DNA of 64,000 bases from an uncultured delta proteobacterium (GTDB taxonomy: Bacteria > Myxococcota_A > UBA9160 > UBA6930), in the NCBI GenBank assembly GCA_963716275.1, contig CAVQTC010000002.1, forward strand, positions 96,897-160,896, in the 5' to 3' direction. This document shows, piece by piece, positions 5,320-49,049 of the stretch (positions are counted from its first letter, which is position 1; each line of letters begins with the position of its first letter). Below the pieces are notes generated by a model, which did no database searches, was not told the origin of the DNA, and saw only the letters and a program-made list of their open reading frames with translations. The position numbers were made by a program, and so were the translations under genes.

Positions 5320-6579
5320 TCACTCTACTCCGAACCCGCTCGCAGCTGAAGCGTTATCTCGCCTCGAGGCGCAGCGGGAGCGCTGCGAGCCCACGCAGGA
5401 AGATCTGCGGTTTCCAACGGCGGGTCCTTTTGCACCAGCTCGATGCGGGCGAAGCGCCGCAGCAGGCTCTCGAGCGCGAGCCGCGCCTCCAGGCGCGCGA
5501 GCGGCGCGCCGAGGCAGAAGTGGATGCCGTAGGCGAAAGCCAGGTGACGGTTCGGTGAACGCGCGACGTCGAGCGCCCCCGCAGCTGGAAACTGCCGCTC
5601 GTCGCGGTTCGCGGAGGCGATCATCGGCAGCACCATGTCGCCCCGGCGGATTTCGCAGACCGGCCCAGGCGACGTCCTCGCTCGCGATCTTGAGGGTTGC
5701 CGGCACTGGGCCGTCGAAGCGCAGCAGCTCCTCGACCGCACTCGGCACGAGCTCGGGGCGCGCGCGCAGCTGCGCGAGCTGATCCGGGCGGCCCAGCAGG
5801 TGGAAGAGCCCGTTGCCGAGCAGGTTCGTGGTGGTCTCGTGCCCCGCGAACAGCAGCAGAACGCAGTTCGCCACCACCTCGCTCTCGCCGAGCCGCCCGC
5901 CCTCGTGCTCGGCGGCGAGCATCAGGCTCATCAGATCGTCGCGCGGCCGCGCGCGGCGCTCGGCCAGCAGGCGACCGAAGTACTCGACGAGCCAGGCGAC
6001 GCCGGCGCTCGCCTCTGCGAAGTTGTCGCGCCCGTCGGTCGCCCCGCCCAGGTAGGCCGCGAGCCGGTCCGAGGCGCGCTTGATCGGCTCGATGGCGTCG
6101 GGCGGCGCGCCGAGCAAGAGCGCGATCACGCGGGCTGGCAGCGGAAAGGCGAAGTCGCGCACGAAGTCCGCCTCGCCGCGCTCGGCGAGCGGGTCGAGCA
6201 GCGCGTCGATCGTGGCCTGGATGCGCGGCGTGCCCTTCTCGAGCTGGCGCGGCGTGAAGCTCTTCTGGAGCAGGGCGCGCAGCCGCGTGTGGTCGGGCGG
6301 ATCGCGGAACACCAGCCAGTCGCGCAGCACCGCGGCCACGGCCTGCACCGCGCTGCGCTCGCTCGCGTAGCGCTCGCCGATCTTGCGGAAGCGATCCGAC
6401 GAGAAACGGGCGGGCTGCTCGAAGATCGCGACCACGTCCGCGTAGCGCGTCACCACCCAGGCCGCGAGGCTCGCGCTGCGGTGGATGGGCTCGTGCTCGC
6501 GCAGCCACGCGTAGAGCGGGAACGGGTCGCGCACGTTGGCGGGGGCCTTGAGGTCGAGGTCGGGGGCAAGCGTCGGCAA
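5320..6579 (-). CDS. cytochrome P450, with an apparent 1-nt frameshift near 5686
   Basis: N-terminal and middle parts lie in the frame of ORF 5320..7365 (FAGHETTTNLLGNG, ELLRFDGPV). The heme loop FAYGIHFCLGAPLARLE and IRRGDMVLPMIASANRDE lie in the frame of ORF 5325..5741. I prefer the TTG start at 6579, because the ATG at 6657 overlaps the redoxin start. Confidence 0.8.
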   Translation of the reverse strand: MPTLAPDLDLKAPANVRDPFPLYAWLREHEPIHRSASLAAWVVTRYADVVAIFEQPARFSSDRFRKIGERYASERSAVQAVAAVLRDWLVFRDPPDHTRLRALLQKSFTPRQLEKGTPRIQATIDALLDPLAERGEADFVRDFAFPLPARVIALLLGAPPDAIEPIKRASDRLAAYLGGATDGRDNFAEASAGVAWLVEYFGRLLAERRARPRDDLMSLMLAAEHEGGRLGESEVVANCVLLLFAGHETTTNLLGNGLFHLLGRPDQLAQLRARPELVPSAVEELLRFDGPVPATLKIASEDVAWAGLRNPPGRHGAADDRLREPRRAAVSSCGGARRRAFTEPSPGFRLRHPLLPRRAARAPGGAARAREPAAALRPHRAGAKGPAVGNRRSSCVGSQRSRCASRRDNASAASGFGVE

Positions 6580-6655
6580 GGCGAGGTCGATGCTACCGCC
6601 TCCCGCGTTCGGGCTGCGCAGCGTAGACTTCCGCCCCACTGCAGGAGGGCTCGGC

Positions 6656-7711
6656 ATGATCCTCGAGCGTCTGGATCCGACGGCTTCCGAGTTCGCGCGC
6701 GCCACGGGCTGGGAGATCAAGCCGGAGGGCGCGTGCAAGGCACACGTCTGCGTGCCGCTCCCGGCGGGCGCGCGGCTCCCGGGCGGCCGCGTGGACGCGC
6801 GCGCCGTCGCAGGCCAGCTCGGCATGGGCATCGCGGAGTACCCGACCCGCAAGCTCTGGGCGCTCGGCCCCGAGTCGGGAGGGCGCGCGCTCACGACGGC
6901 GGTGGCGCCGGACATCACGCTGCCCGATCGCCACGGCCGGCCCTTCCGCCTGGGCTCGCTGCGCGGCACCAAGGTCTTCATGTGCGCGTGGGCGAGCTGG
7001 TGAGGCTGCCGCCTCGACCTGCCCGTGTGGCAGCAGATTCGCAGCGAGCTTCGCCCCCAAGGCCTCGAGATCGTGACCGTCGCCATGGACACGAAGGGCG
7101 TGGAGGCCGCCGGGCCCTGGATCGAGGCGGCCCAGCCCGACCACCCGAGCTTGATCGACGTCGAGCACTCGCTCGGCGCGCTGCTCGGCATCATCAACGT
7201 GCCGATGGGCGTCTGGATCGACGAGGACGGAGTCCTCGTGCGGCCCGCAGAGACGGCCTTCGCACCGCGCGGACCCGGCCGCGAGTTCACAGCGCCCGAG
7301 GACGCGCCCCAGCGCGTGAAGGACATGCTGGCGGAGGCGCGCAAGCTCAAGATCGACCCCGACACCTACCTGGCCGCGCTGCGCGACTGGGTCGCCAAGG
7401 GCAAGGCGAGTCGCTTCGCGCTCTCGCCCGACGAAGTCGTCGCGCGCTCGGCGCCGCGGCCCCGCGAGATCTCGCTCGCGGCGGCCCACTTCGAGCTCGG
7501 CCAGCACCTGCATCGCGCGGGGAGCGTCGAGGAGGCGCGGCCCTTCTTCCGCCAGGCGCATCGCCTGCAGCCCGAGAACTGGACCTACAAGCGCGAGGCC
7601 TGGAGCCTCGTGGATCCGCTGCAGGGTCCGACCCAACACTACGACGGCGACTGGCTCACGGACATCCGCAAGATCGGCGCGGAGAACTACTACCCGAAGG
7701 TCGACCTGTGA
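6656..7711 (+). CDS. TlpA/ResA-like thioredoxin-fold (redoxin) protein with a C-terminal extension; in-frame TGA at 7001-7003 at the first position of the CxxC-like motif
   Basis: APDITLPDRHGRPFRLGSLRGTKVFMCAWASW-[TGA]-GCRLDLP...LEIVTVAMD...GVWIDEDGVLV. ORFs 6536..7003 and 7025..7711 are in the same frame and together form one thioredoxin fold, comparable to FWASWCGPCR in TlpA-type redoxins. Confidence 0.65.
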
Positions 7712-8246
7712 CGCCAGTGAGCCGCGGACGCAAGCTCGCGCTCGGGCTCGGCCTCTTCGTCGCCGCAGGGATCGCGTTCATCGCGCTGCGACCGGCGGGG
7801 TTCAGCGTCGAGCGCTCGCTCACCATCTCCGCTTCGCCCGAGGCGATCTATCCCCACATCGCGAGCCTACGCGCGATGGACGAGTGGTCGCCCTTCGCCA
7901 AGATGGATCCCAAGCTGGTCACTCAGTACGAGGGCCCCGAGTCGGGCGTGGGCGCGATCTCCCGTGGGAGGGCCGCAGATGGGGAAGGGCAGGCTGCGCG
8001 TCACCGGCGCGACGCCCCCGACGCAGGTCGACATGGAGCTCGAGATGATCGCGCCGATGGGGGGCACGATCAGATCACGTTCCTGCTCGCGCCGGGGCCG
8101 GCGGCACGGACGTCACCTGGCGCATGCAGGGCCGCAACGGCTTCGTCGGCAAGGCGATGACGCTCGTCGGCGGCATGGACCGCATGGTGGGCCAGCCGTT
8201 CGAGGATGGGCTGCAGGCGCTGAAGCGGCTCGTCGAGAGCGCCTAG
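7708..8246 (+). CDS. SRPBCC (polyketide cyclase / Aha1-like) family protein, with 3 frameshifts within about 150 nt
   Basis: GTG start at 7708 overlaps the upstream TGA stop (GTGA). The gene is fragmented into segments in all three forward frames; the protein readable across the shifts is ...SPEAIYPHIASLRAMDEWSPFAKMDPKLVTQYEGPESGVGAISR / GPQMGKGRLRVTGATPPTQVDMELEMIAPMGGT / DQITFLLAP / GAGGTDVTWRMQGRNGFVGKAMTLVGGMDRMVGQPFEDGLQALKRLVESA. Confidence 0.7.
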
Positions 8247-8541
8247 GTGTCGAGTCCGGGTGCGTTCGTCATCGGGGTCTCCGGATTCGGCTTTGAGGAG
8301 GGAGACCTCTGAGTGCCGGCGCTGGTTCGAGGTGCGATTCGGTGCGAATGCCCTGCTGCCGGCACGGCGCAGGCGGTGCGCAAGAAATGCGCAGAGTGAA
8401 CTGAGGGTCGAGTAGCAGCCTCCGCTCCCATCGGCAGCCCACTCGGCCTCGAATGTCGGAGCCGTCAGCTCGGTACTCCTCGAGCACTGCCCATGGAATC
8501 GCTCGGGCGCCAGCAGCGCGGCAGCGACGCTCGGCCCGTTC

Positions 8542-9340
8542 CTCCCGGTGAGGTACCTTGACGTTGACAAAACATAGCCCTAATCTAAAGGCATGCAGCG
8601 CCGACATAAACAACTCACGTTCGACGATTACCGCCTCCACTCGGGGCGAGGCGGGCCGCGGGTCGGCGCAGGCCGCCCGCGCGGTCCACGACCCCGGGTC
8701 CTGCACCGCGAGCGCGAGAAGGTCCCCGCGTCCTGCCCTGTGCATGTGACCCTGCGAGCGCGCCCGGGGCTCCCGTCCCTCCGCAGTGCGCGCGTCGTCA
8801 GCGAGTTCCAGCGCTCCCTCGCCCAAGCGAACGAGCGCGGCCGCTTCCGCGTCGTCCACTACTCGCTCCAGCGCGATCATGCCCACCTGATCGTCGAGGC
8901 AAGCGGCAAGCAAGCCCTGGCGAGCGGCATGAAGAGCATCGGGGCGCGGCTCGCCCGGGCGTTGAATCGCGTCTTCCGGCGGCACGGGTCCGTGCTCGAC
9001 GGGCGCTACCACCACCGGCTGCTGCGCACACCCCGCGAGGTGCGGCGTGCCCTGGCCTACGTTCTCTTGAACGTTCGCAAGCACTGGCGGCAGCGCCATG
9101 GCGAGCCGCCGCCCGTTCGCCTCGATGCCGCGTCCTCGGGCGCCTGGTTCGAGGGCTGGAGGCGGATGCTCCCGAGAGCCCCAGACCCGGGCCCCCGGGC
9201 CGTCGCGACGCCTCGCACCTGGCTCTTGCGGATCGGCTGGCGGCGCCACGGGCTCATCGACCCGGGCGAGCTGCCGGGAAGCCCCACGTGGCGAAGCGGG
9301 GGCCGGCCACACGGCCCCGCGCAGCCTTCCCTCTAAAGCC
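8542..9340 (+). mobile_element. IS200/IS605-family (RAYT-like) element, copy 1; the right boundary is approximate
   Basis: It has a conserved 5' leader (CTCCCGGT...GTACCTTGAC...ACATAGCCCTAATCTAA) shared with copy 2 at 49.1-49.9 kb, followed by the transposase CDS. Confidence 0.55.
8593..9336 (+). CDS. IS200/IS605-family Y1 (HUH) transposase / REP-associated tyrosine transposase-like
   Basis: HUH motif in HYSLQRDHAHLIVEA and a catalytic-Tyr region ALAYVLLNVRKH. A paralog lies at 49149..49863. Confidence 0.8.
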   Translation: MQRRHKQLTFDDYRLHSGRGGPRVGAGRPRGPRPRVLHREREKVPASCPVHVTLRARPGLPSLRSARVVSEFQRSLAQANERGRFRVVHYSLQRDHAHLIVEASGKQALASGMKSIGARLARALNRVFRRHGSVLDGRYHHRLLRTPREVRRALAYVLLNVRKHWRQRHGEPPPVRLDAASSGAWFEGWRRMLPRAPDPGPRAVATPRTWLLRIGWRRHGLIDPGELPGSPTWRSGGRPHGPAQPSL

Positions 9341-19725: not shown

Positions 19726-20500
19726 ATGAGTCTCGCGGGACGCGTGGCGCTGGTGACGGGCGGGAGTCGGGGGATCGGGCGCGGGATCGCCCTCGCGCTG
19801 GCCGAGGACGGGGCCGACATCGCCGTCAACTACCGGCGCGACGAGACCGCGGCCAAGGAGACCGTGGCCGCCATCGAGAAGCTCGGGCGGCGCGCGCGCG
19901 CGTACCAGGCCTCGATCGACTCCTACGAAGACGACCAGCGCATGGTCGAGGCCGCGGTCGCGCGACTTCGGCTTCGTCGACATCCTCGTGAACAACGCCG
20001 GCATCGCGAGCCGCGGCAACACCGTCGAGAAGACCGATCCCGCCGAGATGGAGCGCGTGGTGCGCACGCACGCCTTCGGCGCCCACCACCTGTGTCAGCT
20101 CGTGCTGCCGAGCATGAAGACGCGGCCGCGCGGCGACATCGTGATGATCTCGAGCGTGGCGACCCTCCACTACGGCGGCGGCGGCGCCCCCTACAACATG
20201 GGCAAGGCTGCCCTCGAGGCGCTGGCGTTCACGCTCGCCAAAGAAGTCCGCCACCGCGGAATACGCGTGAACGTCGTGGCCCCCGGGCTGGTCGAGACGG
20301 AGATGGGGCGCCGGCTCGCCAAGGCGACGCAAGGCGTGCAAGACCTCCGCGAGCTCGACGCAGCGATGCCGTTCGGACGGGTGTGTCAGCCCGAAGACGT
20401 GGCCAACGCGGTGCGCTTCCTGGTCTCGGAGCGCGGCTCCTACATCACCGGCGAGAAGATCAACGTCTACGGCGGCGGGCAAGAAGCGCGGAGGAGCTGA
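19726..20500 (+). CDS. SDR family oxidoreductase, with a frameshift near 19970
   Basis: [34 protein letters not shown]..., then NNAGIASRG...[11 protein letters not shown]...[11 protein letters not shown] in ORF 19988..20500. GGAGGA RBS. Confidence 0.8.
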
Positions 20501-22249: not shown

Positions 22250-22502
22250 GGATCCTCCGCGTTCCCCCCAGGACCCTTAGCACCTCGTGTCGGGGCTCGG
22301 CTCACGAGCGCGCAACCGAAGGGCCGAGCCCGCGACTCCACAGGGGAAACCGGCAGCGCCGGCTGCCCGGCCGCGTGGCCGACTCCCGCGGGCTGGCGCC
22401 GCACGCAACTCAGTCGTTCACCCGGGCCTGCGTTCTGCCGATTCGACTGCCGTGAACGTGTGTGCATCGCCCCAGGAATGCGCGCGCGCGGGGTGGAGCC
22501 CC

Positions 22503-23502
22503 GTGCGCGCAGCGCGCGCTGCTTTGCTCGCGCTCGCGCTGTCGCTCGCCCCGCAGATTGCGGTCGCGGTCGGCACCGCCGCCGGCACGAGCATCAGCAA
22601 CACCGCCAGCGTCACGGCGGACGTGGGCGGGACCTCGGTCAGCGCGAGCAGCGCCGCGAGCGTGGTCGTGGTCGCCGAGCGGATCGACGTCGACGTGAGC
22701 CTGCTCAGCGTCGGCAACGTGCTGACGACCTCGCCGGCGACAGGGCAGGTCCTCACCTACCGCGTCACCAACACGGGCAACGGCATCGACTCGTTCGCCC
22801 TGACCGGCGACAGCACGCTGGTCGGCGACGACTTCGACCCGGTGCTCGGCAGCATCTACCTCGACGCGAACGCCAACGGCATCTACGACGCCGGCGTCGA
22901 CACGCTCTACCAGCCCGGCGTCAACGACCCGCAGCTCGACGCGAGCGTGCCCACCGCCGACGACGTGGTGGTGTTCGTGCTCAACGACATCCCCGCCGCT
23001 CTCCCGAGCGGCCAGCTCGGCGCGAGCCGGCTGCGCGCGGCCTCACGCACGACGACCGGCGCTCCCGGCAGCGTGCTGGCCGGAGCGGGCGACGGCGGGA
23101 CGGACGCCATCGTCGGGCTCTCGGGCGGCGACGACGAGGACCAGGGCCTCTATCAGGTCTCCACCGTCACCCTCGCAGTCGCCAAGTCCTCGAGCGTGCT
23201 CGACGCCTTCGGCGGCACGCAAGCGATCCCCGGCTCGACGATCACCTACACGCTCGCCGCGACCGTGAGCGGCACGGGCACCGCCGCGCGCCGTGAGCGT
23301 GAGCGACGTGATCCCCGCCAACACGACCTACGTGCCCGGCTCGCTGACGCGCAACGGGTCGCCGCTCACCGACGCGAGCGACGCGCCCACCGACGACGCG
23401 GACTTCAACGTGACCACGCCCAACGGAATCACCGTGGGGCTCGGGAATCTGCCGGCCGGGGGGCCGGCCGAGACGATCACCTTCCAGGTGACGATCAATT
23501 AG
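22503..23502 (+). CDS. secreted DUF11/TIGR01451-type repeat-domain protein A, with a frameshift near 23280
   Basis: Signal peptide (VRAARAALLALALSLAPQIAVA), then GTSISNTASVTADVGG, VLTYRVTNTGNGIDSFALTG, IYLDANANGIYDAGVDT, and C-terminal ...TITFQVTIN in ORF 23293..23502. Confidence 0.6.
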
Positions 23503-23512
23503 GGAGGCATAC

Positions 23513-23998
23513 ATGAAGCGATGGGTCCGACCCTGCGCGGCGCTGGTCGCCGCGCTGCTCGGCGCCGCGGGCGCGGCCGCCGAGACCGGCAAGCTCGAGC
23601 TCCACGCGCGCGCGGAGAAGCGCGTGGCCGTGGCGCTGCCCGACGGCACCACGAGCGAGCAGTTCGTGCCGATCGGGAAAGTCGTGCCGGGCGACGTCGT
23701 CGCCTACACGATCGACGCCCAGAACGTCTCCGGGAAGAACGCGGACGCGGTGGTGATCACCGATCCGATTCCCACTGAGATGGAGTACGTCTCCGCCGAC
23801 CCGGCGGGCGCCGAGCTCCTGTTCTCGGTGGACGGCGGCTTCAAGTTCGACCGCCCCGAGAACCTGTACGTGACGGCACAGGACGGCACGCGCCGCCTCG
23901 CCAGCGCCGGCGACTACACCCACATCCGCTGGGTGTTCGCCGCTCCGTTCGCACCGGCCGAGCGCCGGTCGGTGCGCTTCCTCGCGAAGCTCGAGTAG
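23513..23998 (+). CDS. secreted DUF11 domain protein B (161 aa)
   Basis: Signal peptide MKRWVRPCAALVAALLGAAGAAA. DUF11-like GDVVAYTIDAQNVSGKNADAVVITDPIPTEMEYV. GGGAGG RBS. Confidence 0.7.
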   Translation: MKRWVRPCAALVAALLGAAGAAAETGKLELHARAEKRVAVALPDGTTSEQFVPIGKVVPGDVVAYTIDAQNVSGKNADAVVITDPIPTEMEYVSADPAGAELLFSVDGGFKFDRPENLYVTAQDGTRRLASAGDYTHIRWVFAAPFAPAERRSVRFLAKLE

Positions 23999-24037
23999 CG
24001 ACGCGGGATTTCCGTGCAACTCAACAAGGAGAACCCC

Positions 24038-25156
24038 ATGCATCGGGAGAACGTGATGCGCGGTGTCGCCAGGGTGGTCCTGGCGTCGCTCGCGCTCGGA
24101 ATTGCAGGCACGCAGGGTGCCAGCGCGGCCGGCACGGATGCCGGCACCGTGGTCAGCAACTCGGCCACGGTCAACTACAACGTCGGGGCGACGGCGCAAG
24201 CGCCGGTCAACTCGCTGGCGGTGACCTTCGTGGTCGACGATCGCGTCGACCTCACGGTGGTCGAGCTGTCGGGCGGCTACACGGCCGTGGCGGCGAACGG
24301 CACCAACGAGGTGCTCACCTACACCGTCACGAACACCGGCAACGGCATCCACGACTTCCTGCTGACGCGGGCGGACAACGCCACCGATCCTTTCGGTGGC
24401 ACGGACAACTTCAACGCCACGCCGGTCAGCATCATCGTGGATAGCAACGCGAACAACGTCTACGACGCCGGGACCGACACGGCGACGTACATCGACGAGC
24501 TCGGCAACGGCCAGGCTCGCGCGGTGTTCGTGCTGAGCAACATCGGCGCGCAGGCGAGCGGCGACATCTCGGCCGTCACGCTGACCGCGCAGGTCGCGCA
24601 GGGCGGCACGGCCGGCGTCCAGGGCGCGGCGATCGCCACGGACGACGCCGCGGTCGCGGACACGGCGGGCACGGTGCAGATCGTGTTCGCGGACGCCACG
24701 GGCGACACCGACGCGCTGCACGACGGTCGCCACAGCGACACCGACGCCTACCTGGTCGGCGCCGCCACGGTGACGGTGACGAAGACCTCGGCCGTGATCC
24801 TCGACCCGATCAACGGTGCGCTGAACCCGAAGGCGATTCCGGGCGCGACGGTGGAGTACACCGTCACGGTCTCGAACACGGCGGGTTCCTCGGCGACGGC
24901 CACCAACGTGGTCATCACCGACAGCCTCGCCGCCGAGATCACTGCAGGCAGCGTGGCCTTCGGGACGAACGGCTACGGCGCTGCGCAGGGCATCCAGGTC
25001 ACGGCGCCGAACATCAACGGCGGGGTGGCCACCAACCTGAGCAACTTGGCCGATGCGGACCAGGGCGACTTCTCGGCGAACGTGGTGACCGTCAACGGCA
25101 TCACGCTGGCGCCGAACCAGAGCGCCACGGTCAAGTTCCAGGTCGTGATCCAGTAA
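24038..25156 (+). CDS. secreted DUF11/TIGR01451-type repeat-domain protein C (paralog of A)
   Basis: AAGGAGAA RBS. Signal peptide, then GTVVSNSATVNYNVG, VLTYTVTNTGNGIHDFLLT, IIVDSNANNVYDAGTDT, VEYTVTVSNTAGSSATATNVVITD. Confidence 0.7.
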   Translation: MHRENVMRGVARVVLASLALGIAGTQGASAAGTDAGTVVSNSATVNYNVGATAQAPVNSLAVTFVVDDRVDLTVVELSGGYTAVAANGTNEVLTYTVTNTGNGIHDFLLTRADNATDPFGGTDNFNATPVSIIVDSNANNVYDAGTDTATYIDELGNGQARAVFVLSNIGAQASGDISAVTLTAQVAQGGTAGVQGAAIATDDAAVADTAGTVQIVFADATGDTDALHDGRHSDTDAYLVGAATVTVTKTSAVILDPINGALNPKAIPGATVEYTVTVSNTAGSSATATNVVITDSLAAEITAGSVAFGTNGYGAAQGIQVTAPNINGGVATNLSNLADADQGDFSANVVTVNGITLAPNQSATVKFQVVIQ

Positions 25157-25161
25157 CACCC

Positions 25162-28100
25162 GTGAGCGCACGGCTCACCCTCTCGATGCACGGTCCCCGA
25201 CGGGCCCGCGCGGAGTCCTCGCGACTCCGCGCGCGGCCCGGCCGGGGCTCTCCGTCTTCGCGCTGGGCGAGCCTCCTCTGCGCGTGGCTGGTGGCGGTGC
25301 TCGCGGCCGCCGCCAGCTACGCGCAGACGCCGCCTGGCACGGTGATCACCAACACCGCGCAGGCGGTCTTCACGCCGCCCGGCGGCGTTCCGACCAACGT
25401 CGCGTCCAACGCGGACACGATCACCACGGGGGGCCAGCGCACGCCCTCCGCGACCCAGCTCTTCCACTACGCGCCGGGCAGCGCCGGCGCGATCTCGACC
25501 GCCGTGGGCGCCGGCATGTGCAGCACGAGCGGCGCGGCGGCCGGGCCCTTCGTCGCGACGCCCAATCCCACGAACCTCTCGGGCGGCGCGATCAACCTCG
25601 GCAACCCCGTCGAGCTCCTCGCCGGCGGCGCCTTCCATCAGACCGAGGCGCTGTTCGTGCGCGTGCGCGATCCGGATCAGAATCTCGATCCGCTCAGCGC
25701 CGAGAACGTGCTCGTCTCGCTGGTCTCGGTCACGACCGGCGACCAGGAGTGGATTCGCGTCGCCGAGACCGGCGCGAACACCGGCGAGTTCGTCGGCTAC
25801 CTGATGCTCGGGCCGCCGCCGGCGGTCTCGGGCGATTGCCGCCTCTCCGTCGTCGCGGGCGAGACGTTCCGCGCCGACTACACGGATCCGGCCGACGGCG
25901 CCGACAGCTCGGCGAACGCTGCGCTCGTGGACCCGCTCGGCATCGTCTTCGACAGCCAGACGGGAGCGCCCATCGACGGCGCGAGCGTCACGCTGATCGA
26001 CTCCGCGAGCGGGCTCCCCGCCACGGTGTTCGGCGACGACGGCGTCTCGAGCTTCCCTGCCACGGTGACCTCGGGCGGCACCGCCAGCGACTCGGGCGGG
26101 ACGCTCTACACCTTCGCCCCGGGCCAGTACCGCTTCCCCTTCGTCGCGCCCGGGCAGCTATCGCCTCCAGATCGTCCCGCCGCCCGGCTACGGCTTCCCG
26201 TCGATCGTGCCGGACGTCGCGCTCCAGCTCCTGCCGGGCGCGCCCTTCGCGCTCGGCCCCGGCTCGCGCGGCAACGACTTCGTCGTGCCGCTCGGCCCCA
26301 TCTTCCAGGTGGACGTGCCCCTCGATGCCGCGGGCACCGGCGCGGGCCTGACGCTCAGCAAGCGCGCGAATCGCGCCACCGCCGGCATCGGCCAGTTCGT
26401 CCAGTACGTGCTCGAGCTCTCGGCGCCGGGCGGCAGCGCGGGCAACCCGCTCGTCCTCGACGACCGGCTGCCGCGCGGCTTCCGCTACGAGGAGGGCTCG
26501 CTGCGCCTCGATGGCCAACCGGCGCCGGAGCCCACCATCAGCAACAAGGGTCGGCGCCTCACGGTGCCGCTGCCCGCACTCGCGCCGGGCGGGCGCGTCG
26601 AGATCCGCTACGTGACGCGCATCGGCTCGAGCGCGACCGGCGGCGAGGCGCGCAACGACGCGATCGTGCGCGGCGGCGTGATCGCCTCGAACCCCGCGCG
26701 CGCGAGCGTCCAGGTGATGGCGGATCTCATCACTCAGCGCGCCACCCTGATGGGCCGCGTGATGGAGGGCAGCTGCGACTCGCCGGCCCTCGACGAGCAC
26801 GCGGGGGTCGCGGGCGTGCGCGTATTCCTCGAGGACGGCACCTACACGGTCACCGACGACCAGGGCCGCTTCCACTTCCCGCTGGTGTCGCCCGCGACGC
26901 ACGTCGTCCAGCTCGACACCCAGACGCTGCCCGACGGCCTCTACGCGATGCCCTGCAGCAGCAGCGACTTCGCGGATCGACCCTACTCCCAGTTCGTGGA
27001 GCCCCAGGCGGGAGCGCTCTGGCGGACCGACTTCTTCGTCGGCCGCATGGCGAGCTCGCGCGGCCTCCACCAGCGCCTCACGGTCACGCCTGGCGAGGGC
27101 AAGCAGACGCTCGAGCTGCGCGTCGAGGCGGGCGGCGCTGCGCTCGAGGGGTTGGCCGCCACCCTGATGCTTCCGGACGGCGTCACGCCGCTGCCCGGTA
27201 CGCTGGTCGTCGACGGCCCCGGCGCGGCGCTCGATGCGACCAGCCCCACGCCGCTCGTGCGCGCGCCCACGCTCTCGCCGGGCCAGGCGGTGACGCTGCG
27301 GCTCGACGTGGCGGGCGCGCCGACGCAGCAAGTGAGCTCCTTCGCGCGCGCAAAGCGCGAAGGCGGCGGCGGCGTCCAGACGCCCGTGGCGACCGCCACG
27401 CTCGCGGAGGCCCACACCTTCCTGCAGAGCGCGAGCTGGGAGAACGAGCCCGCCGCGGAGAAGCTCGCCGAGGAGGCGCCGCCCGAGGCCGCCTTCGACG
27501 GGGCCTGGCTCGCGCAGGCCGCCCCGGCCACGCGCTGGCTCTACCCGGACGCCGGCGCCATCCCGAAGATCCCGTCCGTCAATCTCGGCGTCCAGCACGA
27601 CCCGGCGCTGCGCGTGCGGCTCTTCCGCAACGGCAAGCTCGTCGACCCGCTGAACTTCGAGGGCACCGAGCGGAACCCCGCGAAGACGGTCGCGGTGAGC
27701 CGCTGGCGCGGCGTCGATCTCGAGGAAGGGCCCAATACCTTCAGCGCCGAGCTGCTCGACGAGGGCGGTGGGCTGCGCGAGCGCCTCCAATACATGATCC
27801 ACTACTCGGGCCCGCCGGTGCGCGGCGAGCTGATGCCGAGCCTGTCGCACCTGGTGGCCGACGGCCGCGAGACGCCCGTGATCGCGGTGCGGCTCTTCGA
27901 CCGCTGGGGCCGGCCGGTGCGCGAGGGCATCAGCGGCCCGCTGCGCGTCGCGCCGCCGCACCAGGCGAAGGAGACGGTCGAGGCCGCGCGCGAGCGCCAG
28001 CTCGCGATGCCGGATCTCGGCGCCACGAGCTTCGTGGTCGGCCGCGGCGGCATCGCGCGCATCGAGCTCGAGCCCACCACGAACGTCGGGCGCTTCGCGG

Positions 28101-30646
28101 TCACGCTCCAGCTCGCGCACGACGCGCAGCAGGAGATCGATGGTTGGCTCTCGCCGGGCGAGCGCGAGTTCACCCTGGTCGCGCTCGGCACCGGGACGCG
28201 CGGCTTCGGGACGGGGCCCGCGAACCTCTCGGGCGGCGCGAGCGGAGCGCCCGAAGGAAGTGGCTCGGACGGCCGCGCGGCGTTCTTCGCCAAGGGCACG
28301 CTGGGCGATGGCTGGACCCTCACCGGCGCCTACGACACCGACGCCAAGCAGACGCAGCCGGGCGATCGCCTGGGCCGCCACCTGGACCCCGACGAGCACT
28401 ACATGCTCTACGGCGACGGCACCCAGGAGGGCTACGAGGCCCCGACCTCGGACGGCGTCTACCTGAAGGCCGAGCGCGAGCGCTTCTACGCGCTCTACGG
28501 CGACTACGAGACGGGCCTCAGCGAGACCGAGCTCGCGCGCTACAGCCGCGTGCTGACCGGCGTCAAGACCGAGTACTTCGGCGACCGCTTGCGCTGGAAC
28601 GGCTTCGGCACCGACTCCGGCCAGCAGTACGTGCGCGACGAGCTGCGCGGCAACGGCACGAGCGGCCTGTATCGGCTCTCGCGCGTGGGCGCGATCCCGA
28701 ACAGCGTGCGCGTGCGCCTGGAGACCCGCGATCGCTTCCGGCCCGACCGCGTGCTGCGCAGCGAGCCGCTCATGCTCGACATCGACTACGACATCGACTA
28801 CGCCGGCGGGGCGCTCCACTTCCGCAAGCCGATCCCCGGCCGCGACGAGCTGCTGAACCCGATCTTCATCGTGATCGAGTACGAGGTGGACGGCGCGGGC
28901 TCCTACTCGGGCGGTGGCCGCGTGGCGGGCCGGTTCTTCCGGGGCGCGCTCGAGCTCGGCGCGAGCGGCATCCACGAAGGCCGCGGCGACTTCGCGGGCG
29001 ACCTGGTGGGTCTCGACGCGACCTACGACGTCGACGAGGCGACCAGCCTCCATGCCGAGTTCGCCGGCTCGGACAACGACGATTTCGGCGGCAGCGCGCG
29101 CGGCGCAGGCTGGCTGCTCTCGGCCGAGCACCGCACCGAGGCGCTCGAGCTGGCCGCCTACGCCCGCGAGCAGGAGGCCCAGTTCGGCCTGGGCCAGCTC
29201 TCGGCGGTGGATCAGGGCATGCGCCGCTACGGCGTGGACGGGCTCTACCATCTGAACGAGCGCTGGAGCGTGAAGGGCAGCGCGTTCCGCGACGAGCGGC
29301 TCGGCGCCCCCGACGAGCGGACGCTGGCGGAGACGGTGCTCGAGTACGACGAAGCCCAGCGCGGCGCTCATCTGGGCGCGCGCTATGTGCGCGACTCGGC
29401 GCCCCTCGACTCCGCGAACGCCGCGCAGCTTCTGCTGGGCGGCCACTACGCTTTCCTCGACAACCGGCTCACGCTGCGCGCGGCGAGCGAACTGGGCTTC
29501 GGCTCGGAGGGCGCGCACGGCGACTACGCCAACCGCGTCGCCGGCGGCGCCGACTGGCGGCTCACCGATTGGCTCACGCTGTTCGGCGAGCACGAGCTCA
29601 CCTTCGGCGACACGCACGAGGGCCAGGACACGCGCGCCGGCGCAACCGTCACGCCCTGGGAGGGCGGCCAGATCTCCACGACAGTGGGGCAGAACGCGCG
29701 CGAGTACGGCCCGCGCACCTACGCGAACCTGGGCCTCTCGCAGCACTGGAATCTGTTCCAGAGCTGGGGCTTCGACTTCATGGTGGACCGCTCCCAGACG
29801 CTCTCGGGAGGCGGCAGCGAGCCGCTCGATCCGGACCTGGGCTTCGACTCCGGGCCGCCCGCCGACGACTACACGGCGGTGTCGGTCGGCGCGGCGTTCA
29901 CGAAGGACGACACGGCCGTGCAGAGCCGGGCGGAGCTGCGCCTCGGCGACCTCGAGGACCAGTGGAACGTGCTGCTCGGCGTGCTCCGCGAGCACGAGCG
30001 CACCTCCTACGCGGGCCGCCTCGAGCTCTGGAACAAGGACGGCAGCGGCCCGACCTCGAGCCAGGAGGACCTGTACGCGCTGCGCTTCTCGCTCGTGCAC
30101 CGGCCGCTCGACACGCACTGGATCGTGCTCGAGCAGACCGACTTCGAGCTGGGCCGCAACGAGGGCGGCGGCCTCGACAGCCGCGAGCGCAGCTTCGTGA
30201 ACCACTTGAAGGTCAACTACCTCTACACGCAGCAGAGCCAGGTCTCGCTGCAGTACTCGGCGAAATGGGTGGGCGACACGATCGACGGGCGCGACTACCG
30301 CACGCTCGGCCACTTGTTCGGCGTCGAGGCGCGCCACGACCTGACCTCGCGCTGGGACGTCGGCCTGCACGCGCGCTTCCGCCAGCTGACGGGCGGCGAC
30401 GCCGGCGACCAGAACCTCTCGCTCGGCCTCTCGATCGGCCGCGTGCTCTACAAGAACGTGTGGGCGAGCGTCGGGTACAACTTCTCGGGCTTCCAGGACG
30501 ACCAGTTCTCGAAGAGCGACTACACGGCCGAGGGTCCGTTCCTGCGCATGCGCGTGAAGGTCGACCAGGACGCGGTGCGCGACCTGCTCCAGTGGCCGCC
30601 GCGCATGACGCGCCGCAACGACGTCGGCATCGCCCAGCAGCCTTAG
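25162..30646 (+). CDS. giant (about 1830 aa) secreted protein: N-terminal DUF11 plus CnaB/SdrD-B-like domains, C-terminal ~1000 aa predicted outer-membrane beta-barrel; frameshift near 26160
   Basis: Signal LCAWLVAVLAAAASYA. GTVITNTAQAVFTPPGG. IDGASVTLIDSASG...GQYRFPFVAPGSYRLQIVPPPGY. GQFVQYVLELSAPGG...LVLDDRLPRGFRY. VRVFLEDGTYTVTDDQGRFHF. The C-terminus is full of alternating amphipathic strands (LDIDYDIDYAGGALHF, IFIVIEYEVDGAG, LKVNYLYTQQSQVSLQYSAKW, WASVGYNFSGF). Confidence 0.7.
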
Positions 30647-34337: not shown

Positions 34338-37300
34338 CTACCAGGTGTCGACGCAGGGGCGCTTCTTCCCCGTGCGCGGCGCGGGCGGCGGCGAGGCCAA
34401 GAGCGCGCGCGTGATCCAGCGCCGCGTACTCGGCGGGGTCGATCACGTCGTCGATCTCGAAGTGCGAGGCGGTGCTCACGGCCTTGCCGTGGTCGTACAT
34501 GCGCTTCACCATCTGGTCGAAGAGCGCCTTGCGCTTCTCGGGATCGCTCTCCGCGGCGAGCTCGTTGCGATAGCCGAGCTTGACGGCGCCCTCGAGGCCC
34601 ATGCCGCCGAACTCGCCGGTGGGCCACGCGATGGTGAAGACCGGCGCCTTGAAGCTGCCGCCCGCCATCGCCTGGGCGCCGAGCCCGTAGCCCTTGCGCA
34701 GCACGATCGTCACGAACGGGACGCGTGAGGCTTGCCGCCGATCACGAACAGCCGCGAGGCGTGGCGCACGAGCGCGGTCTTCTCGACCTCGGGGCCGACC
34801 ATGATGCCGGGCGTGTCGCACAGGAACACGACCGGGATGTCGAAGGCGTCGCAGAGCTGCAGGAAGCGCGCGGCCTTGTCGGCGGCCGTCGCTGTCGATC
34901 GCGCCCGCCAGATGCGTCGGGTTGTTGGCGACGATGCCGATCGGTCGGCCCTCGACGCGCGCCAGCGCGGTGATCATGCCGAGCCCGAAGCCGCGCCGGA
35001 GCTCGAGCACGCTCCCGGTGTCGGCGAGCGTCGCGATCACGCTGCGCACGTCGTAGATGCGCAGGCGGTTCTCGGGGATCGCGCGGCGCAGCAGGCGCTG
35101 GTCGGCGCACTGACCAGCTGCGCGAGCGGACCCTGGAAGTAGGCGAGGTACTGCTTCGCGACGGCGACCGCCTCGGCCTCGTCGCGCACCGGCACGTCGA
35201 CCACGCCGTTGCGCACCTGGACGTGCGAGCGGGCCGACCTCCTCCGGGCGGAAGACGCCGAGCCCGCCGCCCTCGATCATCGCGGGCCCGCCCATGCCGA
35301 TGTTCGAGCGCTCGGTGGCGATCACGACGTCGCAGCAGCCGAGAAGCGCGGCGTTGCCCGCGAAGCAGCAGCCGCGACGTGATCGCCGACCAGCGGCACC
35401 AGGCCCGAGAGCTGGCCCCGAAGTACTGGAAGGCGAGGCAGTCGAGGCCGGCGACGCCGACGCCGTCGGTGTCGCCGGGCCGCCCGCCGCCGCCCTCGGT
35501 GAAGAACACCACCGGCAGGCGCCATGCGCTCGGCGAGCTCGAACAGGCGGTCCTTCTTGCGATGGTTCTGCTGGCCCTGGGTGCCGGCGAGCACCGTGTA
35601 GTCGTAGGACATCACGACGCAGCGCGAGCGCTCGGCGGCGAACAGCGCGCCGTTCACGCTGCCGATGCCGGCGATCAGGCCGTCGGCGGGCGTGCGCGCG
35701 ATCAGGTCCTCGAGCGTGCGGCGCCGGCGCTGCGCGGCGATCACGAGCGGCCCGTACTCGACGAAGGTCCCCGGATCGCAGAGGTCGTCGACGTTCTCGC
35801 GCGCGGTGCGCTGGCCGGTCTTGCGCCGCCGCGCCACCGCCTCGGGCCGGCTCGCGTCGAGCGTCGATCGCGTGGCGCTCGAGCGACCTCCGCGAGGTCG
35901 GGGCGGATGCGGGCGAGGTCCGCTCCTCGGCGCGCGCGGCGCCTGCGGCCTCGACCTCGGCCTCCTCGAGGAAGACGAGCGGGTGCCCCTCGAAGACGGT
36001 GTCGCCGCGCGCGACGGCGACGCCCTGCACGATCCCGCTCGCGGCGGCCGCGATCACGTGCTCCATCTTCATCGCCTCCATCACGAGCAGCGGCTGGCCG
36101 GCGGCGACCCGCGTCGCCCGCGCTCACGTCCACCGACACGATCGTGCCCTGCAGCGGCGCGCGCACCGCGAGCGTGCCCTCGGGCACCGCGACGTCGGCG
36201 GACGCCAGGATCGCCATTTCGGCGGGCTCCGCCGCCGCCGACTCGGCGGCGGCCGCGCCCTTCCCGTAGTCGAGCACGGCGAGCGGATCGCTGCTGGCGA
36301 GGCGCGCACCAGCGAGCCGCGGCCTTCGCTCGGCTTCAGCTCGCTCGCGAAGAAGAGCTGCGGATGCTCGCTTGCCGCGAGCAGCTCGGCCGCGTGCTCG
36401 TCGACGAAGCGGGTGTGCACCCGCCCCGCCGCGAAGTCGGGTGGCGCGAGCAGCGCCTGCAGGAAGGGCGCGTTCGTGGCCACGCCCTCGATGCGCAACT
36501 CGCAGAGCGCGCGGTACGCGCGCGCCAGCGCGTCCGCGAAGCGTCGGGCGAGTGCACGATCACCTTCGCGAGCAGCGAGTCGAAGCGCGGATTCGTGGTG
36601 TAGCCCGCGTAGCCGCGCGTGTCGATGCGCACGCCCGGGCCCGAGGGCGGCTCGAAGGCGGTGAGCGTCCCCCCCGTCGGCCGCGCGCTCCCGTCCGCTC
36701 CCATCTTCTCGGTGTTGACGCGCAGCTGGATCGCGAAGCCGCGCGGCGACGGGATCTGCGCCTGCTCGAGGCCGAGCTGCGCCAGGCTCTGCCCTGCGCG
36801 AGCTCGAGCTGCGCCTGCACGAGGTCGAGCCCGGTCACCGCCTCGGTGACGGTGTGCTCGACCTGGAGGCGCGCGTTGGCCTCGATGAAGGCGAAGCGGC
36901 GCCCCTGGTCGGCGTCGACCAGGAACTCGACGGTGCCGAGCCCGCTGTAGGACGCGGCCCGGCCGAGCGCCAGCGCGGCCGCGAGAAGCTCTTCGCGCAC
37001 GCCGGGATCGAGCGCGGGGCTCGGCGCGATCTCGACGATCTTCTGGTTGCGGCGCTGGAGCGTGCACTCGCGCTCGCAGAGGTGGGCGACCTCGCCGGCC
37101 GTCGCCCACGATCTGCACCTCGATGTGGCGCGCGCGCGGCAGGAGCTCCTCGACGTAGACGTCCGCGACGCCGAAGGCCGCCTTCGCCTCGGAGCGGCAG
37201 CGCGCGTAGGCCTCCTCGAGCTCCTCGGCGCGCGCGACGACGCGCATGCCGCGCCCGCCGCCGCCCGCGATCGCCTTGATCATCACGACGGCGCCGGGCG

Positions 37301-46155: not shown

Positions 46156-47092
46156 ATGTCTCGCGCAATCCTTTGGGCCGCCGCTCTCGTGCTCGCATCC
46201 GTCTCCGCCCGCGCGGAGGAGGCGTGGTATCCCTCGCGCTACGGCGCGGGCGATACGATTGGCGCCGCCAACAACCTCTCCCCCGAGATCGTGAAGCAGG
46301 CCGCCAAGCTGGTCACCACCGGGAAGACCTACTCGCTTGGCCTCGTGGTCGGGCCCGACACGCCGGCCTATCCGCCGCGCAAGTACACGCTCGTGGTGAC
46401 CCAGTCGAACGACGGCACGGGGCCTCTGCTCGGCGAGAACCAGGCCACGGGGAACGACGATCTCGCCTTCACCTACTTCGGGATCGGCTCGCAGATCGAC
46501 GGGCTCGGCCACCTGGGCATCGCCCACCGCTACTACAACGGCCTGCCCGCGACGGAGTTCGTCCGCCCGACCGGCCTCTTGAAGCTCGGCACCGAGGGCA
46601 TCCCGCCGATCGTGACGCGCGGCGTGCTCCTGAACATGGCGGCGCTGCTCGGGGTCGAGACCGTGAAGGAGGGCACGCCCTACAACCGCGCCCAGATCGA
46701 CGCGGCGGCGAAGCGCCAGGGCGTCTCGATCCGCAAGGGCGACGTCGTGCTCTTCCACTCGGGCTGGATGGCGCGTTCGCGCCCAGGACTCCAACAAGTG
46801 GTGGTCGATGCACCCGGGCGTGGGCGTGGAGGGGGCCAAGTACCTGGCGGGCCTGGGCGTGGTCGCGGTCGGCGCCGACACCACCGCCGTCGAGGCGATC
46901 CCCTTCGAGAATCCCAACCGGCCCTTCGAGGTCCACCAGACGCTGCTCGCCAAGAACGGCGTCCACATCCTCGAGAACATGTTCACGGACGAGCTCGCGA
47001 AGGACGGGGTCTCCGAGTTCCTGTTCGTGCTGGGCCAGCCGAAGTTCCAGGGGGCCGTGCAGATGACGGTCAACCCGATCGCGATCCGCTAG
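46156..47092 (+). CDS. cyclase family protein (kynurenine formamidase-like), with a frameshift near 46790
   Basis: Signal peptide, then ...[13 protein letters not shown]...VVLFHSGW, then [24 protein letters not shown] in ORF 46808..47092. Confidence 0.75.
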
Positions 47093-47108
47093 GGGACCGC
47101 GCCGCGCG

Positions 47109-47835
47109 ATGGTGCGAACGATCTGGAGCCGCGTGGGCAGGGGCAAGACGCTCGCGGCGCGCCTGCGCCGGCTCGCCGTCCTGGTGCTCGCACTCGGCCT
47201 CGGGCTCACGCTCGGGCCCGTCGCGTGCCTCCGCGTGGTCGACCCGCCGACCAGCGCTTTCATGCTGCGCGATGGCGTCTCGCGCTTGTTGGCTGGCAAG
47301 GGCTGGGTCTCCTACCAGTGGGCCGACCTCGACGAGATCGCGCCGGCGCTCCCGCTCGCCGTCGTCGCATCCGAAGACCAGCTCTTCCCGGAGCACGACG
47401 GCTTCGACGTCGTCGCCATCGAGAAAGCCATGAAGGAGCGGCGGCGCGGGGGTCCGCGCGGCGCGAGCACGATCAGCCAGCAGGTCGCGAAGAATCTCTT
47501 CCTCTGGCCGAGGCGCAGCTGGCTGCGCAAGGGGCTCGAGGTCTACTTCACCGTCGCGATCGAGGCGCTCTGGCCGAAGCGGCGCATCCTCGAGGTCTAC
47601 GTGAACGTGGCCGAGTTCGGCGACGGCCTCTACGGCGCCGACCGCGCGGCCCAGCGCTACTTCGGCGTGCCGCCGCGCCGCTTGACCTGCCCAGCAGGCG
47701 GCGCTGCTCGCCGCGGTGCTGCCGAGCCCGCGCCGCATGCACGCCGACCGCCCGGGCCCCTACACCCAGGAGCGCGCGCGCTGGATCGAGGGGCAGATGC
47801 GCCAGCTCGGCGGCGGCTACCTGGCGGGTCTCTGA
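47109..47835 (+). CDS. mtgA: monofunctional biosynthetic peptidoglycan transglycosylase, with a frameshift near 47690
   Basis: [12 protein letters not shown]...[15 protein letters not shown]...[15 protein letters not shown], then ...[15 protein letters not shown]...GGGYLAGL* in the shifted frame. Confidence 0.8.
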
Positions 47836-47890
47836 GCGCCGCTCGCCGGGCGCCACGACCTCGCTACCGTGGCCGCCCTCCGGAGAGCCG

Positions 47891-49049
47891 ATGCCCACGC
47901 ACTGGAAGCGCGACCTCGAGGCGGACGGCGCGAAGTTCCGCGCCTGGCTCGCGCGCACATTGCCCGGCGCCAGCGACCTCGCGGTCTCGGATCTTCGTCG
48001 CGCCCCAGACCTCGGGCTTCTCGAACGAGACGCTGCTCTGCGAGGCGCGCTGGCGCGAGGCCGGACGCGAGCACCGCGAGTCGCTGGTCGTGCGCATCCA
48101 GCCGATCGGTTATCAGGTCTTCCCGGCCTACGACATGGGGCTCCAGTTCCGCACCATGCAGCTCCTGGCCAAGACCGACGTGCCGGTGCCGCGCGCGCTC
48201 TGGCTCGCCGCGGACGACCGCGAAGTGTTCGGAGCGCCTTTCTACGTGATGGCCCGCGTCGAGGGCCGCGTGCCCACCGATCAGCCGCCCTATCACACGG
48301 GCGGCTGGATGCTGGAGGCGACGCCGGAGGAGCGCCGCGCGATCTTCTTGGGCGGCTTCGAGGCGATGGCGAAGATCCATCGGCTCGACCTCGAGAAGAC
48401 CGGCTTCGGCTTCCTGCGCCGACCGGGCTACGCGAACGGCCTCGAGCAGGAGCTCGCCTTCTATCGCGACTACTTCGCGTGGGCCGCGGGCGGCCGCGAG
48501 CAGCCCGTCGCCGAGCGCGCGCTCGCCTGGCTCGAGGGCAACAAGCCGAGCGGCGAGCCCGACGGCCTCGTCTGGGGCGACGCGCGCATCGGGAACATCA
48601 TCTTCGACGGGACGCGCGTGGCCGCGGTGCTCGATTGGGAGATGGTGACGGTCGGAAGCCCCGAGAAGGACATCGCCTGGGCGATCTTCCTCGACCGCCA
48701 TCACAGCGAGGGCCTGGGCGCGCCGCGCCTCGCGGGCTTCCCGAGCTACGAGGAAGCGCTCGCCCACTACGAGACTTGCTCGGGCCACCGCGTGCGCCAC
48801 CTGCACTACTACCAGGTCTTCGCCGGCTTCCGTTTCGCCGTGGTGATGATGCGCATCGCGCAACAGCTCGCGCACTACGGGATGATGACCGCCGAGCAGA
48901 GCCGGGTCATGGAACAGAACAACACGGTGACCCAGTTGACGGCCAAGCTGTTGGGCCTTCCAGCGCCCGCCGGAGCTACTCCGGCCCTGAGGGGTTGGAC
49001 CCAAGGTCCCGTGGCGCGCGATCACACGGCGCTCGGCTTGCCCAACTGA
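47891..49049 (+). CDS. phosphotransferase family protein (APH-like), with a frameshift near 47990
   Basis: [20 protein letters not shown]..., then the frame of ORF 47109..49049: FYVMARVEG...[15 protein letters not shown]...VLDWEM. Confidence 0.8.

Follow-up and report, generated by a model that had tools for sequence, protein, structure and literature searches.

The locus described here raises the question of whether a TGA codon within a long reading frame ends one gene or encodes selenocysteine (Sec) in a longer one. The locus lies in a stretch of 64,000 nucleotides (nt) from an uncultured delta proteobacterium (contig CAVQTC010000002.1), the whole of which is called the window below and supplies all coordinates. 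We identified a frame at 6656–7711 on the forward strand whose TGA at 7001–7003 is almost certainly a genuine selenocysteine codon within one 351-residue thioredoxin-fold protein. It is highly probable that 6656–7711 is a single gene for a soluble, three-domain "ResA-like WAxxUGC motif-containing" selenoprotein in which the UGA is read as Sec through SelB and a hairpin shortly downstream. The slight doubt that we retain concerns mostly the organism's Sec machinery and confirmation of the base at the level of sequencing reads. The gene is not new in kind: it is an ordinary member of a selenoprotein family that has been catalogued before but is functionally uncharacterised.

Reading frame and gene calls

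The frame runs from an ATG at 6656 to a TGA stop at 7709–7711, and its sole interruption is the TGA at 7001–7003. The elements of the gene are as follows.

6656–7711, forward strand: complete selenoprotein coding sequence by translation, 351 codons plus stop, with codon 116 a UGA (Sec)
6643–6648, forward strand: AGGAGG, Shine-Dalgarno-like, 7 nt 5' of the start codon, read directly from the sequence
7001–7003, forward strand: UGA, the Sec codon, residue 116, at the site of the N-terminal nucleophilic Cys of a CxxC motif
7007–7009, forward strand: TGC, Cys118, which presumably acts as the resolving Cys of U-G-C
7709–7711, forward strand: true terminator, likewise TGA, from sequence and translation

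The peptide around the TGA reads ...FMCAWASW-*-GCRLDLPVWQQ, so that the WAxxUGC motif is present as W-A-S-W-[TGA 7001-7003]-G-C. Cys118 is invariant in alignments A2 and A3 and in all DNA copies that were read. Public gene calls divide 6656–7711 into two "hypothetical protein" products of 115 and 228 amino acids (aa), and a split of 115 plus 228–233 aa recurs in five independent assemblies. An earlier note on this DNA, whose coordinates all proved correct when the sequence was read again, took the open reading frames (ORFs) at 6536–7003 and 7025–7711 to encode one protein. This is borne out by a full-length match to a protein family model and by homologues that carry Cys in place of Sec and are single chains (both described below). 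The TTG at 6536 marks only the mechanical beginning of the upstream ORF; homologues start at the MIL... of 6656.

Family membership

The product, with Sec replaced by Cys in the query, matches the NCBIfam model NF041054 at 550 bits against a cut-off of 300 (E = 2.5e-165), with residues 1–350 of the protein aligned to profile positions 1–353 of 354. NF041054 is an equivalog model named "ResA-like WAxxUGC motif-containing protein" (WAxxUGC_long). The protein in the window shares with it the WAxxUGC motif with a TGA-encoded U, the three-region architecture and the assignment to the AhpC-TSA domain (pfam00578), and no differences were found. The earlier note had compared the motif with the generic TlpA consensus WASWCGPCR and was concerned that U-G-C is one residue short, as a compound sequencing error might leave it. 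Our alignments replace that consensus with the relevant one for the family, WASWCGCR; UGC defines the family, and no residue is missing. A compound error is needless because the short U-G-C motif is the family hallmark (NF041054; PMC2398784, PMC9312934, PMC13188914).

Families that we equate with NF041054 by motif and Pfam/CDD domain only, and not by sequence, have been described several times. A "Prx-like (UGC-containing)" family with pfam00578 and the motif UGC is among the Global Ocean Sampling selenoprotein families, where it comprised 46 Sec sequences and 855 Cys homologues and was commoner in non-marine samples (PMC2398784). A 2022 review names a "UGC-containing Prx-like protein" and considers the functions of most such predicted families unclear (PMC9312934), and the family is also catalogued as a selenoprotein family in PMC13188914. 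None of these three papers reports a function for it. The string "WAxxUGC" gave no match in the literature, and the family is mentioned neither in Haft's selenoprotein preprint nor in the main text of Peng et al. 2016.

The homologous codon in other genomes

A homologue scan with one genome per species yielded 80 loci spanning Myxococcota/"Deltaproteobacteria", Actinomycetota, Chloroflexota, Dormibacterota, Acidobacteria and others. Read from the DNA, the homologous codon is TGA in 77 of the 80 species-representative genomes and TGC in the other three, which are Patulibacter minatonensis and two actinomycete metagenome-assembled genomes (MAGs). Counted by gene copy, 82 of 85 have TGA and 3 have TGC; the copies at L051 and L056 also have TGA. 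The best match among GTDB representatives is 73% identical to the protein in the window. Thus the earlier note's candidate, a Sec at the first redox Cys of a TlpA/redoxin fold, is upheld by the alignment of orthologs that it had asked for, with TGA in the large majority and TGC in a few.

Protein searches gave a complementary result. The homologues with Cys are single chains of 344–360 aa with the motif WASWCGC, and are 52–62% identical (in one search 55–62% over 99–100% of the length); some bear the NCBI name "ResA-like WAxxUGC motif-containing protein". The closest relatives (74–100% identical) are all fragments of 224–233 aa that start with MDLPVWQ or MWQ, just past the TGA. On the contigs of these relatives a 115-aa call lies directly upstream every time, which is the same split as in the window; the relatives with the 115 plus 228–233 aa calls have 74–89% identity. 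As judged from the sequences, the conservation of TGA at this one codon is far beyond chance. TGA stands at the same codon across phyla and alternates only with Cys, and it is therefore not accounted for by an assembly error or a private nonsense allele.

Some members depart from the usual motif or copy number. In WASW-U-H-C (L051:2135 and L056:10337) His replaces Gly between Sec and Cys, and in W-[AS]-P-Y-U-G-C (14 loci, L060–L085) Tyr replaces Trp before Sec; all of these keep the downstream hairpin. An actinomycete MAG (L078) has two tandem paralogues, L078:9197 and L078:10346, with the motifs WAPY-U-GC and WASW-U-GC and a TGA in each. In Frankia sp. QA3 (L089) the two copies (L089:3352 and L089:5931) are of the Cys form and lie about 2.5 kb from each other.

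Selection and the genetic code

The ratio of nonsynonymous to synonymous substitution rates (dN/dS) against five relatives is 0.15–0.32 for codons 1–115 and 0.22–0.39 after the TGA. Since the ratio is below 0.4 downstream as well, the same purifying selection acts on both sides of the codon. TGA is the commonest stop in the window and ends 19 of the 31 ORFs with Pfam support, this gene included. An alternative code in which UGA means Trp or Gly was rejected on that count. UGA is an ordinary stop in this organism, and recoding must therefore be local.

The hairpin following the UGA

The earlier note pointed to a weak hairpin 15 nt after the UGA as a possible selenocysteine insertion sequence (SECIS).

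7019–7033, forward strand: SECIS-type hairpin, arm CUGCC (7019–7023), loop CGUGU (7024–7028), arm GGCAG (7029–7033)

This hairpin turns out to be a conserved, covarying element across 78 Sec-form sequences. Alignment A1, which is free of gaps, covers the TGA in these 78 distinct sequences together with 6 nt on its 5' side and 51 nt on its 3' side. RNAalifold predicts for it a single consensus helix, columns 24–29 with 35–40 around a 5-nt loop, which is the hairpin of the note plus one pair. The stem cells are 99.1% paired, compared with 24–74% when the partners are slid by 1–3 columns. In the covariation analysis 22 cells are changed on both sides, and none of 500 shuffles reaches the score. 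Two pairs covary: 24:40 (CG in 51 sequences, UA in 11, GC in 8, UG in 5) and 25:39 (CG in 75, UA in 3). Pair 26:38 is UA in 62 and UG in 15. Pair 24:40 couples a third position that is synonymous (in Asp, GAC/GAT, or as the final base of a different codon) to the first base of a codon five positions downstream. Protein constraint is no explanation for this covariation. Third codon positions are 94–100% conserved inside the hairpin and vary freely on either side.

The loops of the Sec forms are CGUGU (49), CGGGU (28), GGUCU (4) and AGGUU (1), and always follow the pattern N-G-N-N-U. Among the Cys forms all six pairs are kept in two of seven distinct sequences, and the loop G is lost in most. 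The two with six pairs are L032:10313 (Patulibacter minatonensis DSM 18081) and L090:3164, with loops CGUGU and GAUGU. Their hairpins would fit either a recent Sec-to-Cys replacement or a protein-level constraint on L-P-V/M-W-Q.

The published model of the bacterial SECIS (bSECIS) describes a loop of 3–9 nt on a stem of 4–16 base pairs (bp). One of the first two loop nucleotides should be G, as a rule with G or U after it; the loop should lie 16–37 nt from the UGA, and the minimum free energy should not exceed -7.5 kcal/mol (PMC13188914). The hairpin in the window agrees with it in four respects: a 5-nt loop, a 5-bp stem, G then U at loop positions 2 and 3, and a spacing of 20 nt. The distance from the UGA is 15 nt to the start of the stem and 20 nt to that of the loop, and a C.C mismatch (7018/7034) stands where relatives have the sixth pair. 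The SECIS of the family as a whole is compact, with a 6-bp stem that begins 14 nt and an N-G-N-N-U loop that begins 20 nt after the UGA. No Rfam family matched the hairpin or the window.

Like the SECIS of the E. coli fdhF type, the element is a hairpin within the coding sequence right after the UGA, with G then U in a small apical loop and a spacing within the consensus of 16–37 nt (PMC13188914). However, the stem is much shorter here (5–6 bp), and no conserved lower stem was detected.

A different pairing was also considered. The minimum free energy fold of 45 nt of the window pairs GCUGCCGC (7005–7012) with GUGGCAGC (7027–7034). Across the alignment these positions are paired in 76.8% of cases, compared with 76.5% in shuffles, and the covariation score is reached by 142 of 500 shuffles. 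With no covariation support, this fold was rejected.

Domain structure and likeness to known proteins

The protein consists of three parts, for which the following features were located.

6656–6895, forward strand: N-terminal domain of about 80 aa with invariant C27 and C32 in G-A-C-K-x-x-x-C-V-P; boundaries approximate
6902–7243, forward strand: thioredoxin-fold domain (AhpC-TSA/Redoxin, ResA/TlpA-like), residues about 83–196, from Pfam
7478–7579, forward strand: single TPR-like helical repeat, residues 275–308, Pfam TPR_2 at 24.6 bits, below the cut-off of 27

Pfam gave no match below residue 83, that is, in the N-terminal domain. On the Cys-substituted product it matched AhpC-TSA at 38.7 bits (cut-off 26) and Redoxin at 31.4 bits, at residues 83–195. 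The C-terminal domain (about residues 200–351) is all-helical. Its TPR-like repeat also matches consensus TPR proteins in the PDB, and helices are present there in an AlphaFold model. That model, of a Cys-form homologue 62% identical to the protein in the window (P0003; mean predicted local distance difference test score 92.7, predicted template modelling score 0.89), shows a folded N-terminal alpha/beta domain of about 75 residues, the thioredoxin fold and an all-helical C-terminal domain. Its helix 114–132 begins right after C113, the equivalent of the Sec.

Profile matches in the PDB include 3kcm, ResA and TlpA. Aligned to 3kcm, the Sec falls opposite the first Cys of WCPPC, and there is a gap of one residue. 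A Foldseek search of the PDB with the P0003 model matched the central domain only, with ResA best, followed by 3kcm, DsbE and TlpA. The superposition on ResA (2f9s) has a template modelling score of 0.75 (target-normalised) and a root-mean-square deviation of 1.8 A over 118 columns. The protein thus shares with the extracytoplasmic CxxC oxidoreductases ResA, TlpA and CcmG (DsbE) the subtype of thioredoxin fold and a redox residue at the N-terminus of helix alpha-1. However, it differs from them in several ways. Its motif is U-G-C (C-G-C in Cys forms), which is one residue shorter and invariant in the family, and it has an extra N-terminal domain with two Cys and a C-terminal helical/TPR-like domain. 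It also lacks a membrane anchor or signal peptide. No hydrophobic segment was found, the maximum 19-residue Kyte-Doolittle hydropathy being 1.26 (0.56 in the first 60 residues), and for this reason the protein is predicted to be soluble and probably cytoplasmic, unlike ResA and TlpA. The NCBIfam models for these proteins score far below their cut-offs (ResA 43.3 against 170 bits, TlpA 36.5 against 230, DsbE 23 against 359), and no cytochrome-maturation genes lie near the gene among the window ORFs or at related loci. The protein is ResA-like in fold only.

The likeness to peroxiredoxins (AhpC/TSA) consists of the Pfam AhpC-TSA domain, which is also the basis of the Joint Genome Institute label "peroxiredoxin" on Cys forms. 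The peroxiredoxin signature around the peroxidatic Cys is P-x-x-x-T/S-x-x-C. In contrast, the sequence up to the Sec is F-M-C-A-W-A-S-W-U, with the Thr/Ser at -2 and not -3 and no Pro at -7.

The eukaryotic selenoprotein SELENOF (Sep15) likewise has a thioredoxin-like fold and a three-residue Cys/Sec motif with one spacer (PMC9304195). However, the order is reversed (U-G-C here, C-G-U there), there is no detectable sequence relationship, and SELENOF depends on a eukaryotic SECIS in the 3' untranslated region, whereas the element described here is within the coding sequence. This likeness would appear to be one of chemistry only.

Proposed mechanism

During translation the UGA at 7001–7003 would be decoded as selenocysteine. 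The hairpin at 7019–7033, with its G-containing loop 20 nt past the UGA, would recruit SelB.GTP.Sec-tRNA(Sec) to the ribosome as other bacterial SECIS elements do. In the ResA/TlpA-type fold Sec116 is predicted to lie at the N-terminus of helix alpha-1, in the place of the attacking Cys of CxxC oxidoreductases. From there it probably cycles with Cys118 through a selenenylsulfide, which would form an unusually tight U-x-C ring.

It is conceivable, though in our view doubtful, that the protein performs redox chemistry distinct from ordinary thiol-disulfide exchange, for example as an internal Cys-to-Sec relay or a dedicated peroxide/electrophile reductase. Room for such chemistry is left by the strained U-x-C selenenylsulfide expected in a soluble three-domain protein with an unannotated two-Cys N-terminal domain and a TPR-like C-terminal domain, by PDB matches that cover the central domain only, and by the want of a conserved operon partner. 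A further reason is the use of Sec by about 96% of species representatives from soil lineages such as Actinomycetota, Chloroflexota and Myxococcota. Nothing in the window specifically favours distinct chemistry over a generic oxidoreductase. If it were true, selenium would be more important in the soil lineages concerned than is generally assumed.

Alternative explanations

Several observations weigh against decoding of the UGA as Sec in this organism. The bare hairpin in the window has a free energy of -6.7 kcal/mol (z-score -1.25), which falls a little short of the -7.5 kcal/mol that the bSECIS model requires. A 45-nt stretch of the window does fold at -16 kcal/mol, through the non-conserved alternative pairing described above, and the model does not delimit the stretch to be folded. 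With its C.C mismatch at 7018/7034 the window hairpin is without the sixth pair, and relatives that have this pair form stronger hairpins. Three of the six stem pairs are invariant and lie within conserved Pro and Trp codons, and conservation of the hairpin may in part be protein-level. No selA, selB, selD or tRNA-Sec was found in the 64-kb window (ARAGORN, Rfam, and Pfam on 40 ORFs with high G+C at third codon positions (GC3) that cover most of the window), nor did ARAGORN find a tRNA-Sec in 60 related loci. The machinery need not be gene-linked, and its absence from the window is therefore uninformative; the organism's capacity to make Sec is assumed. In addition, the assembly is error-prone, as both flanking genes are frameshifted (see below), and the arguments against a single-base error come entirely from comparative data.

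Given such errors, a mistake in assembly or sequencing could have turned a TGC into the TGA, or the TGA could be a private nonsense allele of TGC; the organism's gene would then be of the Cys form, or dead. The family does include Cys forms, and TGC-to-TGA is a single substitution. However, we consider this very improbable, as the codon is TGA in every one of the closest relatives and in 77 of the 80 species representatives. The window also keeps the hairpin with its G-containing loop, which is lost in most Cys forms, and the dN/dS downstream of the TGA is 0.22–0.39. Furthermore, the errors in the flanking genes are frameshifts (indels) and not substitutions. Alternatively, the locus could hold two separate genes as annotated, one for a 115-aa protein ending at 7003 and one for a 228-aa protein from a GTG at 7025. 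Automatic callers give exactly this split in the window's own record and in relatives, and the GTG is on hand. Yet the split would run through the active site of the thioredoxin fold and part strand beta-1 from helix alpha-1, and the Cys-form homologues of 344–360 aa are colinear across the junction. The 21-nt gap between the calls codes for the conserved G-C-R-x-D-L-P. The GTG itself lies within the hairpin loop at a conserved Val/Gly codon with no evident ribosome-binding site, and in other relatives the callers chose another start (MDLPVWQ). It is hardly credible that the two calls are separate genes.

Finally, the UGA could be read by a near-cognate tRNA (Trp/Cys) or through other recoding, or the lineage could have lost its Sec machinery and the gene be decaying. 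The lack of visible Sec machinery in the window would agree with this, as would a hairpin one pair shorter than in 78 of 82 Sec-form copies. This too is very unlikely. The hairpin fits the bSECIS model (PMC13188914), its loop G is invariant across Sec forms, and the family has been catalogued among the selenoproteins. With TGA as the main stop in the window, neither general read-through nor an alternative code is tenable. The gene shows no signs of decay, for it maintains 351 codons without a frameshift when both of its neighbors have them, and dN/dS is below 0.4. Decoding of the UGA as Sec in one continuous protein thus remains the explanation that we prefer.

For annotation, the 115-aa and 228-aa calls should be merged into one selenoprotein gene with a transl_except for Sec at 7001–7003. 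The stop at 7001–7003 is then not one of the errors of this assembly, which is useful to establish where frameshift errors do occur. The presence of the gene predicts that selA, selB, selC and selD are encoded by the organism, whose nearest relatives suggest a Myxococcota MAG. The Sec form and not the Cys form dominates among species representatives, and this dominance together with the compact SECIS could aid automated annotation of selenoproteins; known biology is unchanged.

Genomic context

The window has a G+C content of 71.8%, and its genes flanking the selenoprotein gene are like those of myxobacterial relatives (P450, SRPBCC, enoyl-CoA hydratase, Rieske oxygenase and sulfatase). In all-against-all clustering of ORFs within 5 kb on either side, no neighbor is shared by the family as a whole; the most frequent non-self cluster is present in 12–14 of 86 loci. 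Genes for P450, SnoaL/LEH, enoyl-CoA hydratase and amidohydrolase proteins recur loosely near family loci.

The earlier note had reported frameshifts elsewhere in the window, and this holds at least for both flanking genes. The divergent P450 gene at 5320–6508 (reverse strand) is split over two frames, with P450 profile positions 236–300 in the frame of ORF 5323–7365 and positions 356–445 (the haem-binding end) in ORF 5325–5741. The division points to a frameshift near 5740, which may be an assembly indel or mark a pseudogene. On the other side, an SRPBCC/Polyketide_cyc2 gene at 7717–8296 (forward strand) starts with a GTG at 7717, 6 nt past the selenoprotein stop, and may be co-transcribed with the selenoprotein gene. 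The frame is kept for only about 84 codons from the start, and the remainder appears to lie in two different frames (ORFs 7964–8296 and 8124–8246), suggesting two more indels. In the syntenic contig of a relative (P0002) the corresponding gene is intact and encodes 175 aa.

An ORF for an IS200-like Y1 transposase (8593–9336, forward strand; Y1_Tnp, 26 bits) separates the SRPBCC gene from the one for enoyl-CoA hydratase. Its GC3 is lower than that of its neighbors, and it is absent at the corresponding position in the syntenic contig of the relative.

Further from the selenoprotein gene, the ORF at 26069–30643 (forward strand; 1525 codons, GC3 0.95) encodes a large protein of unknown family with no Pfam match at E <= 1e-5. 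The ORFs at 22281–23513 (411 codons) and 23999–25153 (385 codons) likewise have no match at this threshold. An ORF at 47067–49046 (forward strand) encodes a transglycosylase domain (residues 82–208, peptidoglycan) and an APH-type kinase domain (335–558) without interruption. This ORF is an unusual fusion, or else an indel has joined two genes. Several Pfam matches are partial, including those at 19757–20497 and 35325–36053: adh_short is matched from profile position 73, adh_short_C2 from 67, and Carboxyl_trans at 3–87 of 493. These partial matches suggest further frame breaks in the window.

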